Source: a virus
Virus genome (UHGV): UHGV-0120697
Length of the DNA: 28,017 nucleotides
Direction: 5' to 3' (one strand)
Below the pieces are notes generated by a model, which saw nothing but the letters and a program-made list of their open reading frames with translations, was not told where the DNA came from and searched no databases. Within the stretch, counting starts at the first letter, position 1. The number at the start of each line of letters is the position of its first letter. Made by a program: the position numbers and the translations under genes. This document shows positions 50 to 12,774 of this stretch, in pieces.

Positions 50-1042
50 CTAATCGATGGACAGTTTATGGACACTTTCAGCCAGCGGATTAAAGTTGAT
101 CGCGTCCTGTAAGAAGTCCGGCGAAAAATGAGCGTACGTCATTGTCTGCTGAATCGTGGCGTGTCCAAGGATTCGTTGCAACGTAACAATATTTCCACCA
201 TTCATCATAAAGTGTGTGGCAAATGTATGACGCATGACATGCGTAGCCTGCCCCTTCGGCAAATCCGGTTTCACCTCCTGAAGAATCTCCCGGAACTCCA
301 GATAATTAACCTGATACAACAACCCCGTCCGACGGGTTTTAATCAGAGGCACAACCGAATCCGCCACAGGAACCGAACGGGATTTTCCGTTTTTGGTGTT
401 AAAGAACGTCACCCGGTTGCCAACGATATGCTCTCCACGTAGTTCCGATGCTTCACTCCATCGGGCACCAGTAGAAAGACACAGAATGGCAACACGACGC
501 GCATCACCCTCCAGTCGCTCAAGAAGCCGTTCAATCTCATCATCAGAAAGAAAGGCCATCTCTGTGTTCTGAACTTTCAGTTTTCGTATACCGCGTACAG
601 GGTTCGCGTTGTGAAAGACCTCAGCTTCAATCAGCACCGTGAACATGGTAGACAGTACGCATAAGTCACGATTAATACTGGACGGCATTAATCCGGCCTG
701 TAATTTCTCTGACCGATATTCAAGCATAAATTTTCGCGTCATCTGACTGGCGCGAGGATCTCCCATTTCACGAACAACCTTCCCTAGCCTAACCCTGTAG
801 CTATCCCCGTAAGCCTGATTACGCCCATCAAGCATCCACCACGCATCAAGCAGCTCTGATAATCGCCGCTGATCAGCTGGCTTAGCCTGCCATGGCTTGT
901 CATGAAAGTTCTGTAACACATACTTCTCAAACTCCTGAGCCTTTGATTTCAGGGCAAAGATTTTTCGAATCCGCTTTCCTTCCGCCCCCTGCGGTCTGAC
1001 ATCGACCTGATAACGTCCGTCTTTGAGTTGCTTAATCGACAT
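50..1042 (-). CDS. int: Tyrosine integrase, P2 Int-like (site-specific recombinase)
   Basis: About 331 aa. C-terminal catalytic region has the R..HxxR..Y pattern (MRHTFATH ... LGHATIQQTMTYAHF). GGAGG RBS before the ATG at 1040-1042; the track ORF extends to a TTG at 1057. First gene at the prophage end, same orientation as the repressor, as in P2. Confidence 0.9.
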   Translation of the reverse strand: MSIKQLKDGRYQVDVRPQGAEGKRIRKIFALKSKAQEFEKYVLQNFHDKPWQAKPADQRRLSELLDAWWMLDGRNQAYGDSYRVRLGKVVREMGDPRASQMTRKFMLEYRSEKLQAGLMPSSINRDLCVLSTMFTVLIEAEVFHNANPVRGIRKLKVQNTEMAFLSDDEIERLLERLEGDARRVAILCLSTGARWSEASELRGEHIVGNRVTFFNTKNGKSRSVPVADSVVPLIKTRRTGLLYQVNYLEFREILQEVKPDLPKGQATHVMRHTFATHFMMNGGNIVTLQRILGHATIQQTMTYAHFSPDFLQDAINFNPLAESVHKLSID

Positions 1043-1111
1043 GATTAGCCCCTCCAACGGATAAATTAACTAAACACTCCTTGCGATATGTAATTCGCTC
1101 AATGTGTAAAG

Positions 1112-1453
1112 TCAGCCAACATTGCGGCCTGATCGGGGTGATTTTTGGGTAATACCGATTGAAACCTGATCGCCCTCCGACTGAATAGATCCATCAAGAG
1201 AGAGAGCCGGAGCAATCTGCCCGGCGACAGGTAGCGTCTTATCTTTTATTAGCCACAGCATGTATTTTTCAAAGCGATCGACTTGCAGAACCGCCTCAAC
1301 GATTTTTGCTCTAGCGTTCTTTTGCCCCGATTCGTAATTCCTTATGGTTGCCAAAGACAACCCAGTAATATCCGCAAACTGCTTTTGTGTTAACCCTTCC
1401 GCCTTACGTATCTGACGTAACTTTTTTGCGTAGTCTATTGACAAGATAACCAT
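1112..1453 (-). CDS. Phage immunity repressor, XRE/Cro-C1-type HTH
   Basis: N-terminal helix-turn-helix (LTQKQFADITGLSLATIRNYESG). Start taken at the internal ATG (1451-1453) with a GAGAGG RBS; the track start at 1507 is a TTG. Divergent from the early operon across an operator-like palindrome. Confidence 0.75.
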   Translation of the reverse strand: MVILSIDYAKKLRQIRKAEGLTQKQFADITGLSLATIRNYESGQKNARAKIVEAVLQVDRFEKYMLWLIKDKTLPVAGQIAPALSLDGSIQSEGDQVSIGITQKSPRSGRNVG

Positions 1454-1474
1454 TTGAGTATTAACCTCTCGCAC

Positions 1475-1498
1475 AAAGATAACCTTTTGGTTATCTTT
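1475..1498. promoter_or_regulatory. Putative operator: perfect inverted repeat AAAGATAACC-TTTT-GGTTATCTTT between the repressor and the early operon
   Basis: 10-bp perfect arms with a 4-bp spacer, read directly; sits in the divergent promoter region (1454-1557). Confidence 0.45.
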
Positions 1499-1557
1499 AC
1501 AAGCCAAAACAAACCATCACAAGGCGCAACAAGCGCACCAACGCAAGAGGATAACAA

Positions 1558-2079
1558 ATGCGGGACTTCATTGCCGATAAAGAGTTATCTGACCACCAAC
1601 CACTTCAGGAAAGTGACACACTCAGCGGATCCATTGATGCCGCCAACGACGACGAACACGAAGAAAACAAGAAAAAGCGTTCCTACAAAAAAGGAGCGAC
1701 TTTGCGGCTGGATGGTCCGATCGCCGGGCTTTGCTCTCTGGAAAAAGGCGCGGCATATATTGGGCTAACAAAATCTGCACTGCGCGTAGCCATTCATCGC
1801 GGTCAAATGCCGGGACACAAGACGCGCACAAACCCGGAAGATGAAAACTCAGAGGGTGTATGGTGGTTTAACGCCAAAGAGTGGGGCAAGTTGGCTGATG
1901 AGCTACCAGAGCACGAGCCCCCAGAATGGCACAACTGGAAAAGTTACTGGACGTATGACCGCCAGAAAAGGAAGTTCTCTCCAGCTAATAAAGAAGACTG
2001 CCAGACCATTAACGGTAAGCGAGTTTATACAGGCAGAAGCTCAAAACTGGACCAACTCAGAAACAACAGAGGCAACTAA
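1558..2079 (+). CDS. First early-operon protein with a central HTH-like segment (possible Cox/Apl-type regulator or excisionase, unusually long)
   Basis: AAGAGGA RBS; segment AAYIGLTKSALRVAIHRGQMPG resembles a DNA-binding HTH; occupies the P2 cox position. 173 aa against about 90 aa for Cox/Apl; acidic N-terminal extension. Confidence 0.45.
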   Translation: MRDFIADKELSDHQPLQESDTLSGSIDAANDDEHEENKKKRSYKKGATLRLDGPIAGLCSLEKGAAYIGLTKSALRVAIHRGQMPGHKTRTNPEDENSEGVWWFNAKEWGKLADELPEHEPPEWHNWKSYWTYDRQKRKFSPANKEDCQTINGKRVYTGRSSKLDQLRNNRGN

Positions 2080-2083
2080 TCGT

Positions 2084-2506
2084 ATGAAAACAAACACGTC
2101 AGATTTCACAATAACTATTTCAAAAAATGACCAAGCATTAATTGATAACCTGAAATACCTTGCGGAAAAACATAATAACGGACGAATTGCAATTAATTTA
2201 CGACACATCACAGGAGTAACAATTGTAACCAGTTACTGGCATCTATATCTAATCGCTAAATCAGTACTTGAAAACAAAGATTCTGTTGTCAATGGAAGAG
2301 ATATAGATACTCTTCCTGCACAAATCAAACCGATAGCCTATCAATTGCGTAATCGTTTTAAAAATGAAGGTGGGATTATATTTGACTTTCCCGCAGCTGT
2401 AGCCGTGAGCTTCTCTCGGGAGGATATACTTCACTCATTTCGTTTTGCTCTATCAGGTGACGAGACATTATGGCAGCTAGAAGATGCCGGGAGCAGCCCG
2501 GCATAA
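2084..2506 (+). CDS. Hypothetical protein in an AT-rich island (moron candidate)
   Basis: Track ORF trimmed to the internal ATG at 2084 because 1841-2083 overlaps the preceding gene in another frame. Visibly lower GC than the flanks. No recognisable domain. Confidence 0.45.
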   Translation: MKTNTSDFTITISKNDQALIDNLKYLAEKHNNGRIAINLRHITGVTIVTSYWHLYLIAKSVLENKDSVVNGRDIDTLPAQIKPIAYQLRNRFKNEGGIIFDFPAAVAVSFSREDILHSFRFALSGDETLWQLEDAGSSPA

Positions 2507-2512
2507 ATCAAA

Positions 2513-2704
2513 TTAAAAATCAACCAGTTGTGTGACAGGTGGGTATTTACGCTGAATTTTGTCAGTTACTAACGCCAGTAATATATGAATCTCTGTGTTT
2601 AATGCGTCTTTATCACCCGTCGTTTTTACCCTGGGAGGGTTAATGTTATCCAGAGCAGCACTAAGTTCACTCAACAAATTAACAACTTTTTTATCTTCTG
2701 ACAT
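2513..2704 (-). CDS. Hypothetical small protein (63 aa), convergent with 2084-2506
   Basis: ATG with an AAGAGG RBS on the minus strand; AT-rich putative promoter region 2705-2840 upstream. Confidence 0.4.
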   Translation of the reverse strand: MSEDKKVVNLLSELSAALDNINPPRVKTTGDKDALNTEIHILLALVTDKIQRKYPPVTQLVDF

Positions 2705-2841
2705 GAAAACCTCTTAACAATTTAATTAAACATAAGCCAGGACCTGAACCGGCCAGTCCAAGTCCTAGACACACAAAAAAAATACCACAAATCAATACAA
2801 GGTGACACGAGTACACCTTACCGAAGGTACAGAGTTTTAAT

Positions 2842-3192
2842 ATGAAACTACAGCGCAATTCTTCACAGCAACGTTTCCGCAACGGTGCGGAACGCCATGC
2901 TAACCGTTTCGCTACCAGTGCATCACGTAGCAACTCTCGCTACAGCCTGAGCGAAACACACGCAACACCGGATGGCTACCCAGTAAAACAAATTGGTGAA
3001 CACACTTGGCTGATTGAAAAAGCAGGAATCGTGGTTCACAGATGCCAGCGCAACCCATTTACCGGAAAACGCATTTTTGCACTGAGCAACGGCGACAATC
3101 AGTTCGGGCAGGATTTCACATTGTACGAAGCACTTCGCACAGTTGATCGTCTGCTTCGCGGACAAAGTTTTATTAAACAGGCTGATTTATAA
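2842..3192 (+). CDS. Hypothetical early protein
   Basis: ORF in the early operon orientation; no recognised domain. Confidence 0.5.
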   Translation: MKLQRNSSQQRFRNGAERHANRFATSASRSNSRYSLSETHATPDGYPVKQIGEHTWLIEKAGIVVHRCQRNPFTGKRIFALSNGDNQFGQDFTLYEALRTVDRLLRGQSFIKQADL

Positions 3193-3202
3193 CAGGTGCT
3201 TT

Positions 3203-3490
3203 ATGACCAAAGACCATGCACAAGGTGTATTTATCCGTTTTATTGATTTTCGCGGTGAACTGTTATTACGTGCATCCGCTATTGACGGAGTGACTCCGGC
3301 GGGTAAAAACGGAGCCGACGAAGCCACTTACGTTTATCTGAACGGCACACGACTGCTTGTGGAACTTCCGTACCAGACCGTACGAGAAATCATCAGCGAA
3401 GCTGAAAAGGCACGCCAGGTTAATGGCGATGAACCCTATATCGAAATTATTTGTATGGATTCAGAAGCTGAAATACAGAAAGCAGATTAA
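3203..3490 (+). CDS. Hypothetical early protein
   Basis: Internal ATG at 3203 preceded by an AGGTG RBS (track ORF starts 3143). Confidence 0.5.
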   Translation: MTKDHAQGVFIRFIDFRGELLLRASAIDGVTPAGKNGADEATYVYLNGTRLLVELPYQTVREIISEAEKARQVNGDEPYIEIICMDSEAEIQKAD

Positions 3491-3501
3491 AGGGCGTTGT
3501 G

Positions 3502-3744
3502 ATGGGCAAAGAATATAAAACTCTCATTAACAAAGCACTTGAGCGTTTTTATTTTCGCTTAAGTGCATCAGGCGTTCATGCTGAACGTGCAGCCCGTGAC
3601 TCATTGACCAGGGCAATCCGGAGTCTGTATGACGTGGCTTTTTACGCTGATGATCTGGATGCACTTAACGAACTTTCCGAGCTGATCTGTGCCGCAGAAT
3701 GCGGGGAACATATTGAACCGTATAAGCTGGGGAATATTGCATGA
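3502..3744 (+). CDS. Hypothetical early protein
   Basis: ATG at 3502 after a GTG at 3499; tightly packed with neighbours. Confidence 0.5.
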   Translation: MGKEYKTLINKALERFYFRLSASGVHAERAARDSLTRAIRSLYDVAFYADDLDALNELSELICAAECGEHIEPYKLGNIA

Positions 3745-3854
3745 GTATATTTATCTCATGGCTTGTTCTGATTATTTCAGTGGTCTGCGCAATTGGCATT
3801 GTGCGAATTATTCATTCAGTAAAAAAGATTGAGCGTTTTTTCACTGAAGAATAA
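3741..3854 (+). CDS. 37-aa single-pass membrane micropeptide (MSIFISWLVLIISVVCAIGIVRIIHSVKKIERFFTEE)
   Basis: Not in the ORF track (below its size cut-off). ATG overlaps the upstream stop (ATGA coupling); a hydrophobic stretch of about 20 residues followed by a charged tail. Confidence 0.4.
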   Translation: MSIFISWLVLIISVVCAIGIVRIIHSVKKIERFFTEE

Positions 3855-3944
3855 CAGCACAAATAAAACACACGATTAAATAAGAAAACATGAAAACAAT
3901 CCGCACTCGCGGAGGGCTTTGTACATTCAAATAAGGCGGCAACG

Positions 3945-4262
3945 ATGAAACAAAATAAAGAAGACAAAATTCAATGCGACGCATTAGCTATTCTTGCTCA
4001 TCTCCAGGATTGCAAACTGGAAGAGGCGCTCCCCGTCGCTCTTGAACTAACCAGAACACTTGTTAGTGAAATTGACCCGGAACGCGACATCGGCACGTTT
4101 ACTGTTGCACTGGCGGCAAAGGCCCTGTTAACGGAACTCTCATCAACCCTTGATTCGCTTTTCGCCGAAATAGACGAGTTGCACGACCACATTGAAGAGC
4201 TGGAAATCCAGCTATCCCGCATCCGTCGCCAGAAACAGAACAGTGGGCGCAATGGCAATTAA
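3945..4262 (+). CDS. Hypothetical early protein (acidic, helical)
   Basis: ORF with an AAGGCGG RBS; no recognised domain. Confidence 0.5.
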   Translation: MKQNKEDKIQCDALAILAHLQDCKLEEALPVALELTRTLVSEIDPERDIGTFTVALAAKALLTELSSTLDSLFAEIDELHDHIEELEIQLSRIRRQKQNSGRNGN

Positions 4263-4455
4263 GCACTTTCCTGTCGTTCGTTTTACCTCCAGAGGACGTG
4301 AATACGAAGTCGACGAACGCCTGATTACCACAATCGACAAACACCGTTCAGAAAAGGATGCACACCACATCTACCTCACTGACGGCACTTACTTCTGCGC
4401 CACCAACGTGGTGCGGGTGAACCTTATCCGACAGGTACAGGAGTCATGCAGATGA
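4252..4455 (+). CDS. Hypothetical small protein
   Basis: Internal ATG at 4252 overlapping the upstream gene end by 11 nt (track ORF 4192). Confidence 0.4.
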   Translation: MAIKHFPVVRFTSRGREYEVDERLITTIDKHRSEKDAHHIYLTDGTYFCATNVVRVNLIRQVQESCR

Positions 4456-4697
4456 CCATTCTGGACTATATCGCCGCCAATCCGGGGTGTAGCGGTGGAG
4501 AAATCGCCGCAGCACTGAATACCCCAACCACAGCTATTAATGCGGAGTTACGCCGACTCTGGCGTAGCGGTTCAGTCATAAGAAAAGAGCGCAAAACAGG
4601 TGGTCGCTTCTCTTACCAGGTAAACCCGATGCCGTTCGGGTGCGGCAATCCACTTACCAATATGTTTAACCAGTTACTGAAGGAAGCCAGAGCATGA
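4452..4697 (+). CDS. Small winged-helix-like DNA-binding protein (putative)
   Basis: MTILDYIAANPGCSGGEIAAALN... resembles a wHTH recognition unit. CAGGAG RBS favours the ATG at 4452 over 4446. Confidence 0.4.
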   Translation: MTILDYIAANPGCSGGEIAAALNTPTTAINAELRRLWRSGSVIRKERKTGGRFSYQVNPMPFGCGNPLTNMFNQLLKEARA

Positions 4698-4990
4698 GCA
4701 TCATCAACCACCAGGAACTACGCGAACTGGCGACTGCCGTGCAAAGAATACCCCCCCGTGAATCACTACCATCTCGCGTGAGCTTACAACCGTCAGTGGT
4801 GTTGGCACTGCTGGATGAGTTGGAGCACGCCAGAACCACGGCCCCTGCCATTCGCCTGACACTCCATCATGAAATCGCTGATTTCTGCGCGACGTTGGAG
4901 GCGCCAGGCGAACCGGAAACGCCGGAAGCAATACAGCAAGAGCTGCTGCAACGCATTGACAAGGTTTTCGATTTTTTCCTTAACCAGTAA
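4694..4990 (+). CDS. Hypothetical early protein
   Basis: ATGA-coupled to the upstream gene; no recognised domain. Confidence 0.5.
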   Translation: MSIINHQELRELATAVQRIPPRESLPSRVSLQPSVVLALLDELEHARTTAPAIRLTLHHEIADFCATLEAPGEPETPEAIQQELLQRIDKVFDFFLNQ

Positions 4991-5000
4991 GGGCCGCAAC

Positions 5001-5204
5001 ATGAACAACAAGACATGGTTTCGTGCATATGCATGGGCGCTGGTATGCGTCCTCGTCTCTCTCATTCTGTATGTAGGGGTACTCCCCCGAATGATTTCAT
5101 CAGACAGCTCCTTCCTGGTATTGTTGGGCATTTTCATTGCCATGCTGTACCCGGCAGGCGTTGTTCGCCTTTTCAGTAAGTACATCAAGGAAATTAAACA
5201 ATGA
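5001..5204 (+). CDS. Small membrane protein, two predicted TM helices (67 aa)
   Basis: Internal ATG at 5001 with an AAGGG RBS after the previous stop; two hydrophobic segments; ATGA-coupled to the downstream SPFH gene. Confidence 0.5.
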   Translation: MNNKTWFRAYAWALVCVLVSLILYVGVLPRMISSDSSFLVLLGIFIAMLYPAGVVRLFSKYIKEIKQ

Positions 5205-6031
5205 AGAAATTCAGACTCTTTCAGATTCTCCCGCTTTTTGCCGCCATCCTGCTGGTTGGCTGCGATCGCGTTGAGCCAGGTAATATGGGCATCAAAGTCA
5301 ACAAGCTGGGCGACGACAAAGGCGTTGGCGAAGTGGTTGGCGTTGGTCGCTACTGGACTGGCTGGAATACCGAGGTTTACATCTTCCCGACCTTCAAACA
5401 AATGAAGACCTACGATGAGCCGTTCAGCTTTCAGATGAGTGACGGCACAACCATCGGCTATCACATCGGCGTGGCCTACAAAGTTGATCCATCCAAAGTT
5501 ACCACGGTGTTTCAGACCTACCGCAAAGGCGTGGACGACATTACCGACACTGACCTGCGCCAGAAGATCGCCGATGCACTCAACCGACTGGCCAGCAAAA
5601 TGACCACCGATAAGTTTATCGACGGTGGTAAGTCTGAACTGCTGGATTCAGCACTTAAAGATATTCAGGAAGAGATGACCCCCATCGGTATTCAGGTCAT
5701 GAGCCTCTCTTATGTCGGTAAACCGGAATATCCGCCAACCGTTATCGACAGCATTAACGCCAAAGTCACGGCAAACCAGAAAACCCTGCAACGTGAACAG
5801 GAAGTCAAGCAACGCGAAGCTGAAGCCAACATGCTGCGCGCAGAAGCTGCCGGACAAGCCGATGCCATTCGCACAAAAGCCCAGGCTGAAGCCGACGCCA
5901 TTCGTTTACGCGGCGAAGCTCTGCGCCAGAATCCCGGCGTTATGGAGCTGGAAGCGATTAACAAATGGAACGGCACGCTACCGCAATACATGACCAGTAA
6001 CACCGCTGTTCCGTTTGTTCCGGTGAAGTAA
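5201..6031 (+). CDS. SPFH/band-7 (HflK/C-, prohibitin-like) domain lipoprotein
   Basis: Signal peptide with lipobox LLVGC; SPFH-like core followed by an Ala/Glu/Gln/Arg-rich coiled coil (EAEANMLRAEAAGQADAIRTKAQAEADAIRLRGEA) and a WNGTLP tail typical of band-7 proteins. Confidence 0.7.
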   Translation: MKKFRLFQILPLFAAILLVGCDRVEPGNMGIKVNKLGDDKGVGEVVGVGRYWTGWNTEVYIFPTFKQMKTYDEPFSFQMSDGTTIGYHIGVAYKVDPSKVTTVFQTYRKGVDDITDTDLRQKIADALNRLASKMTTDKFIDGGKSELLDSALKDIQEEMTPIGIQVMSLSYVGKPEYPPTVIDSINAKVTANQKTLQREQEVKQREAEANMLRAEAAGQADAIRTKAQAEADAIRLRGEALRQNPGVMELEAINKWNGTLPQYMTSNTAVPFVPVK

Positions 6032-6037
6032 TTAAAC

Positions 6038-6081
6038 CCGGCCAGTGAAAACCGCTGGCCGGAGCAGTATCAGGATTTTTT
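6038..6081 (+). terminator. Hairpin (CCGGCCAG/CTGGCCGG) with a distal T-run after the SPFH gene; weak terminator candidate
   Basis: 8-bp GC-rich stem read directly; the T-run is 14 nt downstream, so not canonical. Confidence 0.3.
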
Positions 6082-6198
6082 AGTATGCCGTTCTCACAAA
6101 AAAACCGCTTGCCATGCCGCAATCAGTCAGGTTACATTTCCGCTGCACCTCATAAAACGGGTGCCGGGATTGGAACCCCGCTGACTATGCACGCGCAC

Positions 6199-6220
6199 AA
6201 CCGCGCCAGCGGTTTTTTTG
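6199..6220 (+). terminator. Intrinsic terminator-like hairpin AACCGC-GCCA-GCGGTT followed by T7
   Basis: Stem-loop plus U-tract read directly, inside a roughly 340-bp region with no convincing ORF. Confidence 0.4.
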
Positions 6221-6274
6221 TGCGTACCGTATCGCCACGTCTTTTTCGCGTCAGAATTATGGTGGGGCGTATGG

Positions 6275-6371
6275 GGCCGACTTCGGTCGGGCCGGATTCG
6301 TGCGTAGCCGGTAGTTCCAACCCTGTACGTCTCACCACCCCGAGCTTGGAACCTCTGGATGGTGAGTTTTT
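6275..6371 (+). ncRNA. Candidate structured RNA: UUCG-tetraloop hairpin (6275-6293), helix GTTCCAA/TTGGAAC (6314-6320 with 6346-6352) crossing helix CTCACCA/TGGTGAG (6331-6337 with 6360-6366), then T5
   Basis: Complementarities read directly. ORFs on both strands here translate to low-complexity, non-protein-like sequence. Function unknown. Confidence 0.3.
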
Positions 6372-6398
6372 AAAACTTACTACGTACGAGGCCACCCC

Positions 6399-6629
6399 AT
6401 GGCAAACCGCAAACAACAGCGCGCATACGCTGCGCGTCGTCACATCCAGACTGAAATCAACCGCAGACTTTTCCGCGCATTCCGCGTCGCGCATATCATG
6501 CACATCAATATGCTGCATGAGCGCAGCCACGCACTATCAAACATCTATTCCGCCGCTGTTTTCAGCTATCTGGCGGATGATCTGCGCGAGCTTCAACAGC
6601 TCATCCAGCAGCAAAACAAACTCCATTAA
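6399..6629 (+). CDS. Hypothetical small basic protein
   Basis: ORF with a GAGG RBS directly after the structured non-coding region; weak support. Confidence 0.35.
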   Translation: MANRKQQRAYAARRHIQTEINRRLFRAFRVAHIMHINMLHERSHALSNIYSAAVFSYLADDLRELQQLIQQQNKLH

Positions 6630-6701
6630 TTCCTGTTCCGGGCCTTTCCTGCACCTTGCGGCGGGAGGCCTTCGCACATCTGTAACAAGAGGATTGCCGC
6701 A

Positions 6702-7067
6702 ATGATTCTCGCCAACGACTTTCTTGAATACCTGCTCAACACAGAACGTGATCTTGCCGCTCGCGTGCGTGATCGTTATGACATGTACCTGAAATCCCTG
6801 CCTGTACCGCAGCTCGCTGACGGAAAGATTGTTATTGATGGTCGCTACATGATTGACAGCCACGAGGGAAATTACAGGCTTTACCGCATTGAAGGTGGCA
6901 CCCCGTCCGTTATTGGCATTTACCAGCGCCCATCCTCTGCAATCGTCGATGTGATTGCCGACAGCATCCGCATCACACATCGCCATGCCGACACAGAAGA
7001 CACCGTGCTGGAAATTCAGCGGCTGGCTACAGTCTGCCGCGACACCCTGAATGGCATGACGAAGTAA
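6702..7067 (+). CDS. Hypothetical protein immediately upstream of the replication gene
   Basis: ORF in the operon orientation; ends 7 nt before the A start. Confidence 0.5.
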   Translation: MILANDFLEYLLNTERDLAARVRDRYDMYLKSLPVPQLADGKIVIDGRYMIDSHEGNYRLYRIEGGTPSVIGIYQRPSSAIVDVIADSIRITHRHADTEDTVLEIQRLATVCRDTLNGMTK

Positions 7068-7073
7068 ATCACT

Positions 7074-9896
7074 ATGACGGCAGAGTACATCAGGGACTGG
7101 CAACAACCGCGCCACGCAGTAGGACGTGAAGGAACGGAGATCCCCGCACCTGAATCCGCACTTTCCTCCTGGCTGGATGCCTACCGGGCAGAGAACGAAC
7201 GCCGCCAGGAAATGGCTGATGCGGCGTTCTCCGCCACACCGCTGGGCAACCTGATTAATAAAAGCCTGGACGCACAGGAAAAACAGGACAAAACCATCAC
7301 ACTGGCAGGAGACGCCAGAAAACGGGCACGCGGCGCGGTGGATGAAGCCATGGCCTCGCTGCGCCTGCTGCCGTCCTATCTGCGCGATCCGCTTATTCGC
7401 CACCTCTCCTTCCTGCGCAAAAAACAGGAAGCCGATCGCCGGAAAGGCAAAAAGAGCTGGCAGGCGGAACGCTATGCACGCGGAACCCTGCGCAAAATAT
7501 TCGAACGTCTGGATCGCACTGACAGACGCTGGCTGACACCGGGTTATCGCTCCCTTGCCGGACGCGAACGCCTGGACGATTTGCTTTACCTGCCGCAGCT
7601 CAACAAACACCAGATACAGACGCTGGCCACCATGACGGCGGCGATGTTCAGCAGCACCTTCGAAAAACTCTGCGATGGCTTTGGCGCGACTGATGGCGAA
7701 CTGACCATGGATGTAACGCTGAAGGCGTATCAGATGCTGGCCCGCATGGCGTTACACCTGCACGCCATGCCTCCACATTATGACGCACTGACAACAGACA
7801 AAGACCGGAGGAACGAACCGGACACGGAGCTGCTGCCGGGCGCAATCCTCCGCCTGACCTGTGCGGAATGGTGGAAACGCAAACTGTGGCTGTTACGTTG
7901 CGAGTGGAGAGAAGAACAACTCCGCGCCGCCTGTCTGGTTTCCAGAAAAACATCGCCCTATCTGAGCCAGGACGCGTTAAGCGAGTTTCGCGCACAGCGC
8001 GAGAAAACACGCGATTTCCTGAAAAGTTTCATGCTGGAAAATGAAGACGGGTTCACGATTGATCTCGAGACGGTGTATTACGCGGGAGTAAGTAACCCGG
8101 TTCACCGTAAGGCAGAAATGATGGCCACCATGAAGGGACTGGAACTTCTGGCCGAAGCCCGTAGCGACAGAGCGGTGTTTCTGACCGTCACCTGCCCGTC
8201 AAAATACCACGCAACAACGGAGAACGGTCATCCGAACCCCAAATGGAACGGGGCCACCATGCGCGACTCCAGCGATTACCTGGTTAACACGTTTTTTGCG
8301 GCAGTCCGCAAAAAACTGAACCGCGACGGCCTGCGCTGGTATGGCATCCGCACGGTGGAGCCTCACCATGACGGCACCGTGCACTGGCATATGATGGTCT
8401 TTGCTCATCCGGAAGAAATCGACAGCATCGTGGCCATCACCCGCGATATTGCCATTCAGGAAGATCGTCACGAACTGGGCGATGATATTACTCCGCGCTT
8501 TAAGGCGGAGTATGTCGACGGCTCAAAAGGCACACCAACCAGCTATATCGCGACCTACATCGGAAAAAACCTGGACAGCCGCGCCGTAGATGGCATCGAC
8601 CCGAAAACGGGCAAGCCACGCGTTGACCACGAAACCGGAAAATCAATGGCCGAGAGCGTGGAGCGCGCCATTGGCTGGGCGCGTCTTCATCGGGTCCGCC
8701 AGTTCCAGTTCTTTGGCATCCCCTCCCGTCAGGTATGGCGTGAACTCCGCCGCCTTGCCAGCCAGATGGCACGCAACCCGGAAGGCCCGCAACGGCTGAA
8801 GGATGATGCAATGGATGCGGTACTCGCTGCCGCTGATGCCGGGTGTTTTGCCTCCTACATTGAAAAACAGGGTGGCGTGCTTGTTCCACGCAAGGACTAC
8901 CTGATTCGCACCGCCTACGACCTCGCAGATGAGCTGAACGATTACGGCGAACAGAGCGTACAGATTTACGGGATCTGGTCACCACTCATCGGGGAATCCT
9001 CCCGTGTGTGCACGCATCCGGATAACTGGAAGTTGGTAAGACGTAAACCAGAACCAGAAGACAACGCCCGCGAAAATGGTTTTGACCTTCAGGGCGGCCA
9101 TGCCGCCCCTTGGACTCGTGGCAATAACTGTCCCCGTGTACAGGAAACGGACAACAACGGGACAGAACAGCCGGAAGAACGGCCAGCACCGTGGCCGCAG
9201 CTTCCTGACGGCGTTGACGTGAACGAATGGATGCGCTCACTGAAACGGCACGAACGCCGGGCGCTGATGCGTTCGCTTCGTGACAAACAGGCAAAAAACA
9301 GCAGTGATGAAATGCAGAGCTGGACACAGAGCCGCAAACAGCAGCGGCCTTTGCCTGATAACCACGAATTACTCGCTAAAGAATGGCGGGAATCTGCCGA
9401 ATCTCTCGGCCTGCATATCGGTGAACAGCAGATGCAGCACCTGTTACGGGGCGGCAGTCTGTACGTTGACGGCAGCATCATTGCACCGCAGGGATTTGAA
9501 ATTGTACGCAAACCGGATACCCGACCGGACAGCCGGATCACGCAGCTCTGGCAGCGCCTGAGCCGTAACCACGGCGTAAGCAGTACGGAGATCCGCCATA
9601 ACCCGGTCGCCAGCTATCTGGAACAGCTGAGGGCATCAGACCCCGAAGCCGCCGCACGCCTGGCATCCACACTTCAGCAAGACCAGAACACCATGAAAAC
9701 ACCCGTTACCGTGCTTTCTGACATGCTGCGCGCCATCCGCGACGCAGAGCACGCACAGAGAATCAGTGAAACCACTGAACGCGCCCGCCGCAAAGCAGAC
9801 CTGCTGCGGGGTGGCCTGACCAGTGGAAACAAAAAACAGACAGAAACGGGATTCACAAATCCCGTAAATGAGCAAAAAACGCGCCGCGATATATGA
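7074..9896 (+). CDS. A: Rolling-circle replication initiator, gpA family (HUH endonuclease)
   Basis: HUH motif (TVHWHMMVFAH) and paired active-site tyrosines (TSYIATYIGKN); position after the early operon as in P2. 940 aa, longer than P2 gpA (about 760 aa), with a C-terminal extension. Confidence 0.9.
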   Translation: MTAEYIRDWQQPRHAVGREGTEIPAPESALSSWLDAYRAENERRQEMADAAFSATPLGNLINKSLDAQEKQDKTITLAGDARKRARGAVDEAMASLRLLPSYLRDPLIRHLSFLRKKQEADRRKGKKSWQAERYARGTLRKIFERLDRTDRRWLTPGYRSLAGRERLDDLLYLPQLNKHQIQTLATMTAAMFSSTFEKLCDGFGATDGELTMDVTLKAYQMLARMALHLHAMPPHYDALTTDKDRRNEPDTELLPGAILRLTCAEWWKRKLWLLRCEWREEQLRAACLVSRKTSPYLSQDALSEFRAQREKTRDFLKSFMLENEDGFTIDLETVYYAGVSNPVHRKAEMMATMKGLELLAEARSDRAVFLTVTCPSKYHATTENGHPNPKWNGATMRDSSDYLVNTFFAAVRKKLNRDGLRWYGIRTVEPHHDGTVHWHMMVFAHPEEIDSIVAITRDIAIQEDRHELGDDITPRFKAEYVDGSKGTPTSYIATYIGKNLDSRAVDGIDPKTGKPRVDHETGKSMAESVERAIGWARLHRVRQFQFFGIPSRQVWRELRRLASQMARNPEGPQRLKDDAMDAVLAAADAGCFASYIEKQGGVLVPRKDYLIRTAYDLADELNDYGEQSVQIYGIWSPLIGESSRVCTHPDNWKLVRRKPEPEDNARENGFDLQGGHAAPWTRGNNCPRVQETDNNGTEQPEERPAPWPQLPDGVDVNEWMRSLKRHERRALMRSLRDKQAKNSSDEMQSWTQSRKQQRPLPDNHELLAKEWRESAESLGLHIGEQQMQHLLRGGSLYVDGSIIAPQGFEIVRKPDTRPDSRITQLWQRLSRNHGVSSTEIRHNPVASYLEQLRASDPEAAARLASTLQQDQNTMKTPVTVLSDMLRAIRDAEHAQRISETTERARRKADLLRGGLTSGNKKQTETGFTNPVNEQKTRRDI
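9846..9865. promoter_or_regulatory. 20-bp palindrome ACGGGATT-CACA-AATCCCGT (copy 1, inside the 3' end of A)
   Basis: Perfect 8-bp inverted arms; an identical-arm copy lies 73 bp downstream. Confidence 0.5.
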
Positions 9897-9918
9897 AGCG
9901 CGCATAAAACAGGCAAAA

Positions 9919-9938
9919 ACGGGATTTCAGAATCCCGT
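9919..9938. promoter_or_regulatory. 20-bp palindrome ACGGGATT-TCAG-AATCCCGT (copy 2, 35 bp upstream of the parM-like start)
   Basis: Same arms as copy 1; both copies preceded by AAAACAG and followed by AAA(T/C)GA; positioned as an operator or centromere-like site. Confidence 0.5.
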
Positions 9939-9972
9939 AAACGATTAATTAATCAACATAAGGAAAAGCGAC

Positions 9973-10932
9973 ATGAAAATTTGTATCGATGACGGCTCCA
10001 CCAACATCAAGCTGGCATGGACTGAGAACGGCGAACGCCGCAACGCCATCAGCCCGAACAGCTTCAAGTCGGAATGGTCTGCGCCGTTCGGTGGCACGCA
10101 GCCCGCGAACTACATGCTTGATGGCGTGCGCTATGGTTTTGATCCGGTCAGCGATCGCTTTGTCCAGACGACTGACACGCAATACCAGTACAGCGATGTG
10201 AATGTCATTGCCATTCATCACGCGCTGGTCAAATCAGGCATCACGCCACAGGAGGTGGATGTGGTTGTCACCCTGCCACTGAGCGAGTATTTCGACACAA
10301 ACGCACAGCCGGACATAGCCAACATCAACCGCAAAAAAGCGAACGTTATGCGCCCGGTGGAGTACCAGAACGGCGAAGCATTCACTATCCGTAACGTACG
10401 GGTTATGCCTGAATCCATTCCGGCTGGCTTTAAGGCACTGGCTGACATGAGTCCGTTTGAATCCCTGCTGATTGTGGATTTAGGCGGAACCACGCTGGAT
10501 GTGGCAAAGGTTCAGGGACAACTGGCAGGTATCAGCCAGGTGTTTTGCGATCCACACGTAGGCGTTTCCCTGATGGCCGATGCCGTACTGTCGGTGATGG
10601 CCACTAACGGTATGCGTACCAGTCACCACATCGCCAATACCATTATCGAACATCGCCATGATGAAGCCTGGCTGCGCCAGCACATCCACAATGACGCGCA
10701 TTACGCCAGCCTGATGGCGGTTATTCGTGAAAAGGAAGAAACACTGAAACAACGCGTGATCCGCGCGCTGGCGGGTTTTTCGGGTTACGGGCGGGTGATG
10801 GTTGTCGGTGGCGGGGCAGAGATTGTGGCACCCGCTATCCGCGAAGCCTGCGGAGTTAATGCGACTTTCATCGCGGACGGGGTGCCACAGTTTGCTCTGG
10901 TTAATGGGCTGTACGCAATGGGCAAGGAGTAA
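9973..10932 (+). CDS. parM: Actin-like segregation ATPase, ParM/StbA family
   Basis: Actin-fold motifs: phosphate-1 (IDDGSTNIKLAW), phosphate-2 (VDLGGTTLD), adenosine (VVGGGAEIVAP). N-terminus closely resembles plasmid R1 ParM as recalled from memory (not searched). Confidence 0.7.
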   Translation: MKICIDDGSTNIKLAWTENGERRNAISPNSFKSEWSAPFGGTQPANYMLDGVRYGFDPVSDRFVQTTDTQYQYSDVNVIAIHHALVKSGITPQEVDVVVTLPLSEYFDTNAQPDIANINRKKANVMRPVEYQNGEAFTIRNVRVMPESIPAGFKALADMSPFESLLIVDLGGTTLDVAKVQGQLAGISQVFCDPHVGVSLMADAVLSVMATNGMRTSHHIANTIIEHRHDEAWLRQHIHNDAHYASLMAVIREKEETLKQRVIRALAGFSGYGRVMVVGGGAEIVAPAIREACGVNATFIADGVPQFALVNGLYAMGKE

Positions 10933-10936
10933 ACCA

Positions 10937-11248
10937 ATGACGACACCAACCAGACGGATAAGTTTCTATCTGAAGCCCGCCGCCGTCAAGAACGAAGGCG
11001 AAGCATGCGCCTGGCTGGACAGCCTTACACCAGAAGCCCGCAAAAGTGGTCAACGCGTGGCTTTTCTGGCCGGGCTGGCACTACTGAAAATGAATCCGGC
11101 AGAGGCTTACCGACTGGCTGCATGGGCTGATGATGAGGCGTTATCAATGACACAAACCAGGACAGAACGCCCCGCGTCACAGCCAGTATCAGCCGCACAG
11201 ATAACCAGTCAGATGGCCGGAAATATCCGGGCGTTATTTCCCGAATAA
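10937..11248 (+). CDS. parR: ParR-like small DNA-binding adaptor (ribbon-helix-helix type)
   Basis: Directly downstream of the ParM-like gene with an AAGGAG RBS; N-terminal RRISFYLKP...LDSLTPEAR...AFLAGLALLKMNP and C-terminal NIRALFPE resemble R1 ParR as recalled from memory. Confidence 0.55.
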   Translation: MTTPTRRISFYLKPAAVKNEGEACAWLDSLTPEARKSGQRVAFLAGLALLKMNPAEAYRLAAWADDEALSMTQTRTERPASQPVSAAQITSQMAGNIRALFPE

Positions 11249-11253
11249 CACAA

Positions 11254-11277
11254 CATCAGGGCGCATCCGCCCTGATG
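11254..11277 (+). other. Perfect 10-bp-stem hairpin (CATCAGGGCG-CATC-CGCCCTGATG) between the parR-like gene and the next operon
   Basis: Read directly; no U-tract, so a processing, stability or protein-binding role is as likely as termination. Confidence 0.45.
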
Positions 11278-11311
11278 ACTTTAACCCGGGAGCATAAACA
11301 AGGGGGACACA

Positions 11312-11644
11312 ATGCAACACATTGACAGAGAAAAAGCGCAGCGACTGATTGAGCGGATGGAAGCGCTGGCGAAAGAAGAAAATGTCAACATCCAAAAAAT
11401 AGCTGAATGTGGCCAGATAGTTCTTCGTCGTGAAAAAGACCTCAAACAACTGATGTCTGGCGAAACCAGCAAAACATGGACTTCAGGCGAGAAGACGGTT
11501 TATTGCAGCTTCTGCAATAAATCCCAGTACGAAGTCACAAAGGTGATTGCCGGACCGTCTGTTTACATCTGCAATGAGTGCGTGGATTTGTGCAATGAAA
11601 TTATCAGGAAAGAAGTGACAGACAAAAAGGAAAAAAACGCATGA
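11312..11644 (+). CDS. Small protein with a ClpX-type C4 zinc-binding domain (host ClpX N-domain mimic)
   Basis: C-terminal [38 protein letters not shown] has the C-x2-C-x18-C-x2-C spacing and is near-identical to the E. coli ClpX N-terminal zinc-binding domain as recalled from memory. No AAA+ module follows. Confidence 0.6.
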
Positions 11645-11955
11645 ACAGAAAACAGAAACAAGAGTTGAAATACTTCTTACGTAAAGAAATTGCCAGGCTT
11701 GAAGATGCAGAGTCACAATCATCAGAAATTCCGTTCGGAATGGATATCAACGACGCCCGTATGCTCCAGGCATACCGCATAGCTCAGGCTGCACTACAGG
11801 CAAAACCGTCAGATGGACTGGTTAGAGCAGTACATTTCTATGAACAGGTAAAGCGTGAGAATCCGCCAGTCGAAACCGGAGCATGGAAAGACGCTGTTGA
11901 CTGGGTGCTCAAAGAGGCTTGCCAGTCTGTAAACATTGGCATCAAAGGAGAGTGA
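11641..11955 (+). CDS. Hypothetical protein (operon gene 2)
   Basis: ATGA-coupled to the upstream gene; ends ...IGIKGE with the stop inside a 17-bp repeat. Confidence 0.5.
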
Positions 11956-11957
11956 GA

Positions 11958-12449
11958 ATGCAAATTTCACCGGTTACTCTTCGTGTTGCGAAGGCGTTTA
12001 TATCCAGACATCACCGACACAATAAACCCCCGGTGGGGCATAAATTCAGCATTGGTCTGAGAAATGATGCCGGAGAATTGATAGGTGTGGCGACAGCCGG
12101 TAGACCTGTTGCACGACATTTGGACGATGGATTAACGCTTGAAGTAAATCGCACATGTACCACAGGAGAACGCAACGCTAACAGCGCGCTTTATGGTGCT
12201 GTCTGGCGGGCAGCAAAGGCTATGGGTTATCAACGTTGTATTACGTACACCCAGGCAGATGAATCAGGAGCATCTCTCCGCGCAGCTGGTTTTGTTCGTG
12301 TGAAAGAGCTTCCTCCAAGAAAAAGCTGGGCGGAATCAAGCGTCGCCCTGCGGAGTAAACGCGATCCGGTCGGAAACGGTGGTGTTCCTCGTGTGCTCTG
12401 GGAAATCAGGAGAATGAGTACCACTGGCATTCGCATCAAAGGAGAGTGA
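11958..12449 (+). CDS. Hypothetical protein (operon gene 3), basic/His-rich N-terminus; possible acyltransferase-like fold
   Basis: ATG 2 nt after the upstream stop; ends ...GIRIKGE with the stop inside the second copy of the 17-bp repeat. Fold assignment is a weak impression only. Confidence 0.45.
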   Translation: MQISPVTLRVAKAFISRHHRHNKPPVGHKFSIGLRNDAGELIGVATAGRPVARHLDDGLTLEVNRTCTTGERNANSALYGAVWRAAKAMGYQRCITYTQADESGASLRAAGFVRVKELPPRKSWAESSVALRSKRDPVGNGGVPRVLWEIRRMSTTGIRIKGE

Positions 12450-12450
12450 T

Positions 12451-12714
12451 ATGGCAACTTTGACAAAAAAAGAACAAGCATGGTTGAGCGAATTACAGGA
12501 CGTTCTTGATCGCTGTCCATCACCGAAAAAAATTGGTTTTTACACCATTGGCGATAAAAGCATTTACCTGTATGACCTGCGCCGCATGGATGAAATCATG
12601 GAGGCTCTTGATAATCGTTCGTCAATGGATTGGTGTGTTGCTGTCCATGATATGAATGCAGGGTTTGATGAAAAGATTTTGTTCCCCTCATCAGTTGAAA
12701 GCACAGCAGGATAA
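12451..12714 (+). CDS. Hypothetical small protein (operon gene 4)
   Basis: ATG 1 nt after the upstream stop; followed by a strong terminator. Confidence 0.5.
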   Translation: MATLTKKEQAWLSELQDVLDRCPSPKKIGFYTIGDKSIYLYDLRRMDEIMEALDNRSSMDWCVAVHDMNAGFDEKILFPSSVESTAG

Positions 12715-12750
12715 GGACCCAGCAAATATACACAACCTATAAAACACTAA

Positions 12751-12774
12751 AGCGCCTCAGGGGCGCTTTTTGTT
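12751..12774 (+). terminator. Rho-independent terminator (AGCGCC-TCAGG-GGCGCT + TTTTTGTT)
   Basis: GC-rich stem-loop with a U-tract 36 nt after the last operon stop. Confidence 0.65.

Follow-up and report, generated by a model that had tools for sequence, protein, structure and literature searches.

Partition modules built around an actin-like filament former have been described in elements that normally reside in a chromosome. The srpMRC system of the SXT/R391 integrative and conjugative elements (ICEs) is an actin-type partition system of this kind, with an activation-dependent upstream promoter and a centromere of four direct and inverted repeats in its 5' untranslated region, and it stabilizes the excised ICE alongside a toxin-antitoxin system (Carraro et al. 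2015, PMC4489591). In the Corynebacterium glutamicum prophage CGP3, AlpAC pairs an actin-like filament former with an adaptor whose binding sites are repeats lying upstream of the operon; the pair is induced early and connects circular phage DNA with actin-like filaments, and the excised circle requires it to replicate efficiently (Donovan et al. 2015, PMC4446434). Here we analyze a parM-parR cassette that follows the gpA replication gene of an integrative P2-like prophage in a 28,017-nt stretch of viral DNA (UHGV virus genome UHGV-0120697; the whole stretch is hereafter the window). The cassette is a fixed part of the P88-like (Xuanwuvirus) temperate phages and not recent plasmid cargo. On balance, and with modest confidence, we favor the reading that it is a functional type II ParMRC segregation module of the R1 parA/stb family, which would couple the extrachromosomal phage circle to ParM filaments for an inheritance benefit or a mixed inheritance-plus-replication benefit.

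The cassette is already known, both in annotation and in the literature. PGAP names its genes ParM and plasmid partitioning/stability protein in more than 1000 genomes, they are annotated in the records of P88, phiSM, and other phages, PHROGs 691 and 2515 both carry the label "partition protein", and a GenBank note on phage D6 cites similarity to the StbA of P88. Rousset et al. 2022 (PMC9122126) mention the cassette with the same speculation on plasmid maintenance, and the gene is counted among the fitness factors in the phiSM paper. As a claim of discovery the locus therefore adds little, the genes being annotated and the hypothesis being in print. An earlier note on this DNA had considered such a module unexpected in a phage that integrates, a premise that does not hold for a cassette found in roughly a quarter of complete E. 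coli genomes and already annotated and published; the premise is further undercut by srpMRC (PMC4489591) and AlpAC (PMC4446434), through which actin-type systems of integrative elements were known. What we add is the pattern of selection on the two genes, a dissection of the ParR domains, the fixed linkage to gpA, evidence against routine carriage as a plasmid, and the description of an atypical two-palindrome site.

The first gene of the cassette encodes a clear member of the R1 ParM family. Both Pfam ParM domains are matched at full length, PF06406 (StbA_N) over residues 1-157 and PF21523 (C-terminal) over residues 159-316, and solved R1 ParM structures are matched over residues 2-317 (E 2.5e-93). 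Identity to an R1-type plasmid ParM is 47% over 319 aa. The open reading frame (ORF) contains IDDGSTNIKLAW, DLGGTTLD, and VVGGGA, and the motifs for phosphate 1 (DDGSTNIK), catalysis (PESIPAG), phosphate 2 (DLGGTTLD), and adenosine (GGGAE) are unchanged relative to R1 ParM; the Glu of PESIPAG is the residue which, from established knowledge of R1 ParM, we take to be catalytic. The family assignment made in the earlier note is thus borne out by the two domains, the R1 structures, and the level of identity. That note had also placed the actin-like ATPase directly after gpA, and the parM start codon indeed lies 76 nt past the gpA stop codon.

The gene is intact and strongly conserved. Across 85 loci, comprising the window, phage and plasmid records, and 80 IMG/VR contigs, parM is present at its full 319 aa in every case (85/85). 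Its ratio of nonsynonymous to synonymous substitution rates (dN/dS) is 0.05, against 0.23 for a 1.5-kb segment of gpA; parM is under strong purifying selection, stronger than that acting on the replication gene of the phage itself. More than 5000 plasmids in PLSDB carry the family, though the closest plasmid ParM reaches only 52% identity. Since no plasmid ParM exceeds this value, the phage clade is an old, separate branch rather than a recent capture. A tblastn search with ParM across 50,697 phage records returned only Xuanwuvirus members and the P1-like phage-plasmid D6 (48% identity).

The second gene likewise belongs to the ParR family, as the earlier note had proposed, with a PF10784 match (Plasmid_stab_B, StbB/ParR) spanning residues 6-76 and a profile match to a solved ParR structure in support. 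The likely start codon of parR is the ATG at 10937, 4 nt past the parM stop; a 148-aa ORF starting at a TTG is less likely. Identity to an R1-type ParR is 34% over 56 N-terminal aa. A profile built from five ParR sequences, plasmid ParRs included, matches the solved pB171 ParR (2JD3) at 3e-14, and a profile of phage alleles only has 2JD3 as its top match (E 0.0096); the single ParR sequence found no match among solved structures, 2JD3 being reached by the profiles only. An AlphaFold2 model of the ParR monomer (pLDDT 61) has helices over residues 20-61, disorder over 66-86, and a helix over 86-100, with no N-terminal strand, and a Foldseek search of this low-confidence model against the PDB gave chance matches only. 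Because the model is of low confidence and Foldseek returned no real match, assignment of a ribbon-helix-helix fold to ParR rests on sequence homology.

Within ParR, conservation is divided sharply along the protein. A conserved N-terminal domain (residues 1-65), which includes an RRISFYLKP segment common to all alleles, is followed by a hypervariable linker (66-92) and a conserved C-terminal NI(R/Q)ALFPE motif. The dN/dS values are 0.12-0.20 for the N-terminal domain, about 0.9 for the linker, and 0.12 for the C-terminal motif. This is the pattern expected for a predicted DNA-binding domain joined by a flexible tether to a putative ParM-binding tail. ParR is full length in 81 of the 85 loci, and the other four are truncated, some of them at a contig end. 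ParR is also far more variable than ParM, with two allelic classes about 52% identical and many linker variants, against 98-99% identity for ParM. Megablast matches covering 81% of the query stop at 10991, at about codon 18 of parR, a break that marks a recombination boundary bordering the variable gpA-gpQ region. A tblastn search with ParR against plasmids at E 1e-3 recovered only P88-like copies, R1-type ParR being too diverged for this search.

The cassette is carried by a defined group of phages and is linked to a single type of replication gene. The cassette region is 100% identical to the window in Escherichia phage PhiR44_2 and 95-98% identical in P88, Xuanwuvirus P884B11, phage 520873, and Citrobacter phage phiSM, all Peduoviridae, of which P88 and P884B11 are classified in the genus Xuanwuvirus. 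Among 5426 complete E. coli genomes, at a query coverage of at least 80%, gpA of the P88 type occurs in 1327, parM alone in 1279, and the gpA 3' end together with parMR in 1278. The cassette thus has a prevalence of about 24% among complete E. coli genomes, with ST131, O157, and O26 strains among its carriers, and parM is also present in about 96% of the genomes with this gpA type. The cassette is essentially always fixed beside one gpA lineage and is not shuffled.

This fixed linkage bears on whether the cassette could be hotspot cargo that has been repurposed for exclusion or defense, for example against plasmids or phages that use ParM, or for another form of lysogenic conversion. The cassette does lie within the gpA-gpQ interval, a defense hotspot of P2-like phages (Rousset et al., PMC9122126), with variable cargo directly downstream. 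We nevertheless consider such a role very improbable, and the exclusion or defense option raised in the earlier note finds no support: the cassette stays beside one gpA lineage, neither ParM, ParR, nor their neighbors have a PADLOC match, and the complete architecture of ParM, ParR, and repeats is retained along with the conserved ParR C-terminal motif. Cross-binding to plasmid centromeres is also unlikely, given that ParR is only 34% identical to the R1 type over its N-terminal domain and that the candidate site differs from R1-type iterons.

That candidate site consists of two palindromes that straddle the gpA stop codon. They share identical 8-nt arms, ACGGGATT and AATCCCGT, and lie within 42-nt direct repeats that are 81% identical, with a start-to-start spacing of 73 bp. 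The description of two identical-arm 20-bp palindromes preceding the cassette was correct as to position and arms; the 4-nt spacers differ (CACA and TCAG), however, and the first palindrome is not intergenic, being encoded in the last 17 codons of gpA, while the second lies 34 nt upstream of the parM start codon. A search for CGGGATT-N4-AATCCCG with at most two mismatches finds only these two sites in the 28-kb window and in the 35.8-kb P88 genome. Shuffled sequences gave an expectation of 0.09-0.12 occurrences, and two sites were found in 0 of 100 shuffles. The GGGATT-N4-AATCCC core is kept in a Hafnia relative despite diverged flanking gpA sequence, and its central GG/CC positions are invariant across 39 distinct sequences. 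From these features we infer that the palindromes are ParR-binding sites and form a putative parC.

The N-terminal strand is common to the two ParR allele classes, which also occur with the same palindrome variants, and therefore no specificity groups can be inferred. In two contigs (L043 and L062) the same arm position is altered in both palindromes (ACAGGATT at both sites; AAACCC / AACCCC at both) with ParR unchanged, which suggests gene conversion between the repeats, or chance. A scan of one genome per species yielded only three loci (E. albertii, S. enterica, and a Vagococcus assembly), and with them no distant gpA-linked cassettes for a comparison of centromeres. The Vagococcus locus, on a 226-kb "Vagococcus sp." contig (NZ_JBQPOM010000071.1), carries a parM gene whose product shares 97% identity with the E. 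coli phage protein and is most likely enterobacterial contamination of the assembly.

A different account of the palindromes would make them RNA hairpins or minus-strand terminators in place of ParR sites, and the cassette a decaying relic. A terminator scan does flag both as terminator-like on the minus strand, each with an 8-bp stem and a T-rich tail. No minus-strand gene converges on them, however, and among the 39 distinct sequences no compensatory changes were found in 16 pairs, while several variants break the pairing. For lack of compensatory changes the hairpin or terminator was rejected as the main explanation of the palindromes, and decay is excluded by the parM dN/dS and by the 85 intact ORFs. 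We give this account very little credence.

The setting of the genes suggests when they may be expressed. No sigma-70-like site was found in 9500-11700 at the scan threshold, and a manual look at the putative parC showed poor promoter hexamers only; a consensus scan could miss a weak promoter. The strong plus-strand terminator-like sites of the early region are only two, at 6199-6214 upstream of gpA and at 12749-12769. No terminator separates gpA from parMR, which point in the same direction, and with no promoter found and no intervening terminator, transcription from gpA probably continues into parMR. Expression together with the replication gene would in turn make it probable that the cassette acts while the genome is extrachromosomal.

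On these grounds a mechanism can be proposed for the favored segregation module. ParR dimers would use their invariant N-terminal RRISFYLKP strand to bind the two GGGATT-N4-AATCCC palindromes, and the ParR C-terminal helix (..NIRALFPE), carried on the disordered linker, would capture the ends of ATP-ParM filaments; the filaments would then push the circular genome copies or set their position. The two proteins would be made with the early or replication transcript, at a time when infection, excision, or induction has left the genome outside the chromosome. In this way replicated circles would be distributed across the cell and reach both daughters. The benefit could be reduced loss of the element (through abortive lysogeny or curing after excision), better replication or packaging, or both. 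Establishing the role of the cassette in the phage would test how far the idea that a transient episome needs partition, known from the SXT/R391 ICEs, reaches into temperate phages, would help to account for the stability of prophages that are widespread in pathogenic E. coli, and could possibly define a minimal two-site type II centromere.

The same filaments could also serve the lytic cycle without any role in inheritance. P2-type phages replicate by a rolling circle and yield monomeric circles, which are the packaging substrate; ParM filaments would then position or separate replicating monomers for replication and packaging, in the manner of AlpAC. That parMR stands directly after gpA, on the same probable transcript, and that AlpAC provides a precedent both argue for this possibility, which we rate as rather unlikely. 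P2, 186, and other Peduoviridae replicate well without ParM, which among the phage records searched is confined to Xuanwuvirus and D6. Its molecular mechanism is the same as that of the segregation module, from which it differs only in the benefit.

A stronger version of the segregation module is also conceivable, in which the two-site minimal centromere in the gpA end couples new rolling-circle monomers to ParM filaments and the cassette, rather than a stand-by device for plasmid maintenance, is an integral and conditionally essential part of the Xuanwuvirus life cycle. We put this forward tentatively, as a proposal more doubtful than the module in its general form. Were it true, the cassette would set lysogenization efficiency, curing rate, or packaging yield, and might let the phage persist in a plasmid state where the host has no attachment site. 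One in four P2-like prophages of E. coli would then use a bacterial cytoskeleton, and the site would represent a new minimal parC architecture.

Several observations weigh against the favored segregation module. Our literature search found no experiment on this cassette and no functional study of the ParM of P88 or Xuanwuvirus. Partition would be of little benefit to an integrated genome or to one replicating at high copy, and its selective advantage is unclear. The architecture of the site is atypical, since direct iterons in arrays precede parM in the R1-type, IncI-type, and D6 cassettes, where here there are two spaced inverted repeats. The outer arm positions tolerate single changes, and palindrome variants do not covary with the ParR classes. 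The palindromes may be an operator only, or the true centromere may lie elsewhere. The failure to detect a promoter, unlike in R1 parC, counts on the same side, as does the derivation of the expected timing of expression from consensus scans.

The cassette might instead allow the phage to live as a true plasmid prophage. Rousset et al. 2022 (PMC9122126) suggest such a phage-plasmid lifestyle in passing, and it could hold for some hosts if not for all; a 48% identical ParM is used by D6, a P1-like plasmid prophage. A stable lifestyle of this type as the norm is contradicted by the genomes, and even an occasional one appears unlikely. Within complete E. coli genomes, 1441 of 1443 parM places are chromosomal, and near-identical copies of the cassette adjoin, for example, pdxB. 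The earlier note had asked whether related prophages exist as extrachromosomal elements: the chromosomal places speak against it, and one P88-like circle recorded as a plasmid speaks for it. This record, NZ_CP148288.1, from an E. coli cat isolate, is a 34,461-bp circular "plasmid" consisting of a complete P88-like genome closed at the attachment site (att). It may be an excised or induced form, and its frameshifts suggest assembly errors. The integrase and the C/Cox switch are kept in every inspected copy, no theta-type plasmid replicon is annotated, and the rolling-circle gpA is the only replication gene recognized, beside an integrase, a repressor, and Cox. Extrachromosomal maintenance as in the phage-plasmids P1, N15, SSU5, and D6 was not found for this phage group. 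The remaining "plasmid" matches are prophages within large plasmids, probable chromosome fragments, and a linear contig.

Frameshifts split the portal, sheath, tape-measure, and D genes of NZ_CP148288.1, several of them lying at homopolymers; gpA, parM, and parR are undamaged. The frameshifts are probably assembly error, and the record cannot be called a defective plasmid-state phage, the less likely reading of it. A Shigella boydii "plasmid" was rejected as an episomal copy because it is a linear prophage contig ridden with insertion sequences (IS), and large "plasmid" records were rejected as prophages inside plasmids or probable pieces of chromosome. An IncC conjugative KPC plasmid (NZ_MK439959.1, 34014-58325) carries a P88-like prophage in which IS26 has taken the place of the left end (int, C, cox) and gpA, parM, and parR are kept.

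P88-like genomes further contain a hok/gef-family toxin gene near the ogr/att end (P88 34928-35068; NZ_CP148288.1 1291-1431), and these phages thus carry analogues of both stability loci of R1, parMRC and hok/sok. As a second plasmid-style stability function this gene counts in favor of the segregation module, and it can equally be cited for a phage-plasmid.

The features of the window to which these arguments refer are collected in Table 1.

Table 1. Coordinates of the cassette and of associated features in the window
Feature	Position	Strand	Evidence or remark
Tyrosine integrase	50-1057	-	PF24624 1e-27 and PF00589 7.7e-19; marks the element as integrating
Helix-turn-helix (HTH) repressor	1112-1507	-	Adjoins integrase
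Cox-like ORF	1558-2079	+	Beside the HTH repressor
gpA-type rolling-circle replication endonuclease, 940 aa	7074-9896	+	PF05840 9e-130
Putative centromere/operator repeat 1	9830-9871		A-rich tract and ACGGGATT-CACA-AATCCCGT at 9846-9865; in gpA 3' end
Putative centromere/operator repeat 2	9903-9944		A-rich tract and ACGGGATT-TCAG-AATCCCGT at 9919-9938; intergenic
parM, actin-like segregation ATPase, 319 aa	9973-10932	+	PF06406 3.6e-82, PF21523 1.3e-68, PHROG 691 "partition protein"
parR (stbB), centromere-binding adaptor by homology, 103 aa	10937-11248	+	PF10784 2.5e-24, PHROG 2515 "partition protein"
GC-rich hairpin, 10-bp stem, CATCAGGGCG-CATC-CGCCCTGATG	11254-11277		Perfect stem, 6 nt past parR stop
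First strong intrinsic-terminator-like site downstream of gpA	12749-12769	+	Probable end of the transcript including parMR

The window runs from the integrase, repressor, and Cox-like genes through early genes, gpA, the cassette, and cargo to P2-type portal, terminase, capsid, and tail genes, and every gene from about 1558 to 12714 is on the plus strand. The integrase, C-type repressor, Cox, and P2-type structural genes identify the host element as an integrative P2-like prophage; together with the chromosomal copies they confirm the carrier proposed in the earlier note. The Pfam GPA domain spans only residues 179-503 of the 940-aa gpA, whose C-terminal stretch of about 430 residues is without a recognized domain. 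At the other side of the cassette, the GC-rich hairpin forms its downstream edge and the start of the variable gpA-gpQ cargo region. The hairpin has no T-run on the plus strand, and its candidate roles are those of an attenuator, of RNA end protection, and of a recombination boundary. The cargo at 11312-12714 encodes a 110-aa protein with a ClpX-type C4 zinc finger only (PF06689, 6.8e-18), a 104-aa protein of no known family, an XF1762-family or Mom-like protein (NF045478, 5e-61; PHROG 1384), and an 87-aa protein, also of no known family; these genes have no PADLOC match. The set of cargo genes that follows parR differs among the window, P88, pZ1323PEC0009-2, and pC-Ec2-KPC.

The closest relative in architecture is the ParMRC system (parA/stb) of plasmids R1 and R100. 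The order of repeats, parM, and parR is the same, ParM shows 47% identity from end to end and keeps every nucleotide-binding motif, and ParR belongs to the same family (PF10784), again with an N-terminal DNA-binding domain and a conserved C-terminal segment. The phage cassette differs in residing in an integrating phage and in a ParR that is 34% identical over 56 aa. R1 parC comprises about ten 11-bp direct iterons, whereas the phage site has two spaced inverted repeats, and the autoregulated promoter of the R1 parC type is unrecognized in the phage cassette, which is probably served by read-through from gpA. Phage D6 resembles the P88-like phages in its phage-borne ParM of the StbA type, 48% identical and followed by a ParR-like gene; D6 is, however, an extrachromosomal 91-kb P1-like phage-plasmid with multiple TCTCA-type direct iterons upstream. 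AlpAC is likewise encoded by an integrated prophage, as an actin-like protein and an adaptor acting on circular phage DNA, but by its description it belongs to another actin-like family with another adaptor, works in a Gram-positive host, and has a demonstrated role in replication. The carrier of srpMRC is an ICE and not a phage, SrpM is distant from ParM, and SrpR is without a recognizable ParR domain, whereas the proteins of the P88-like phages belong clearly to the R1 family.

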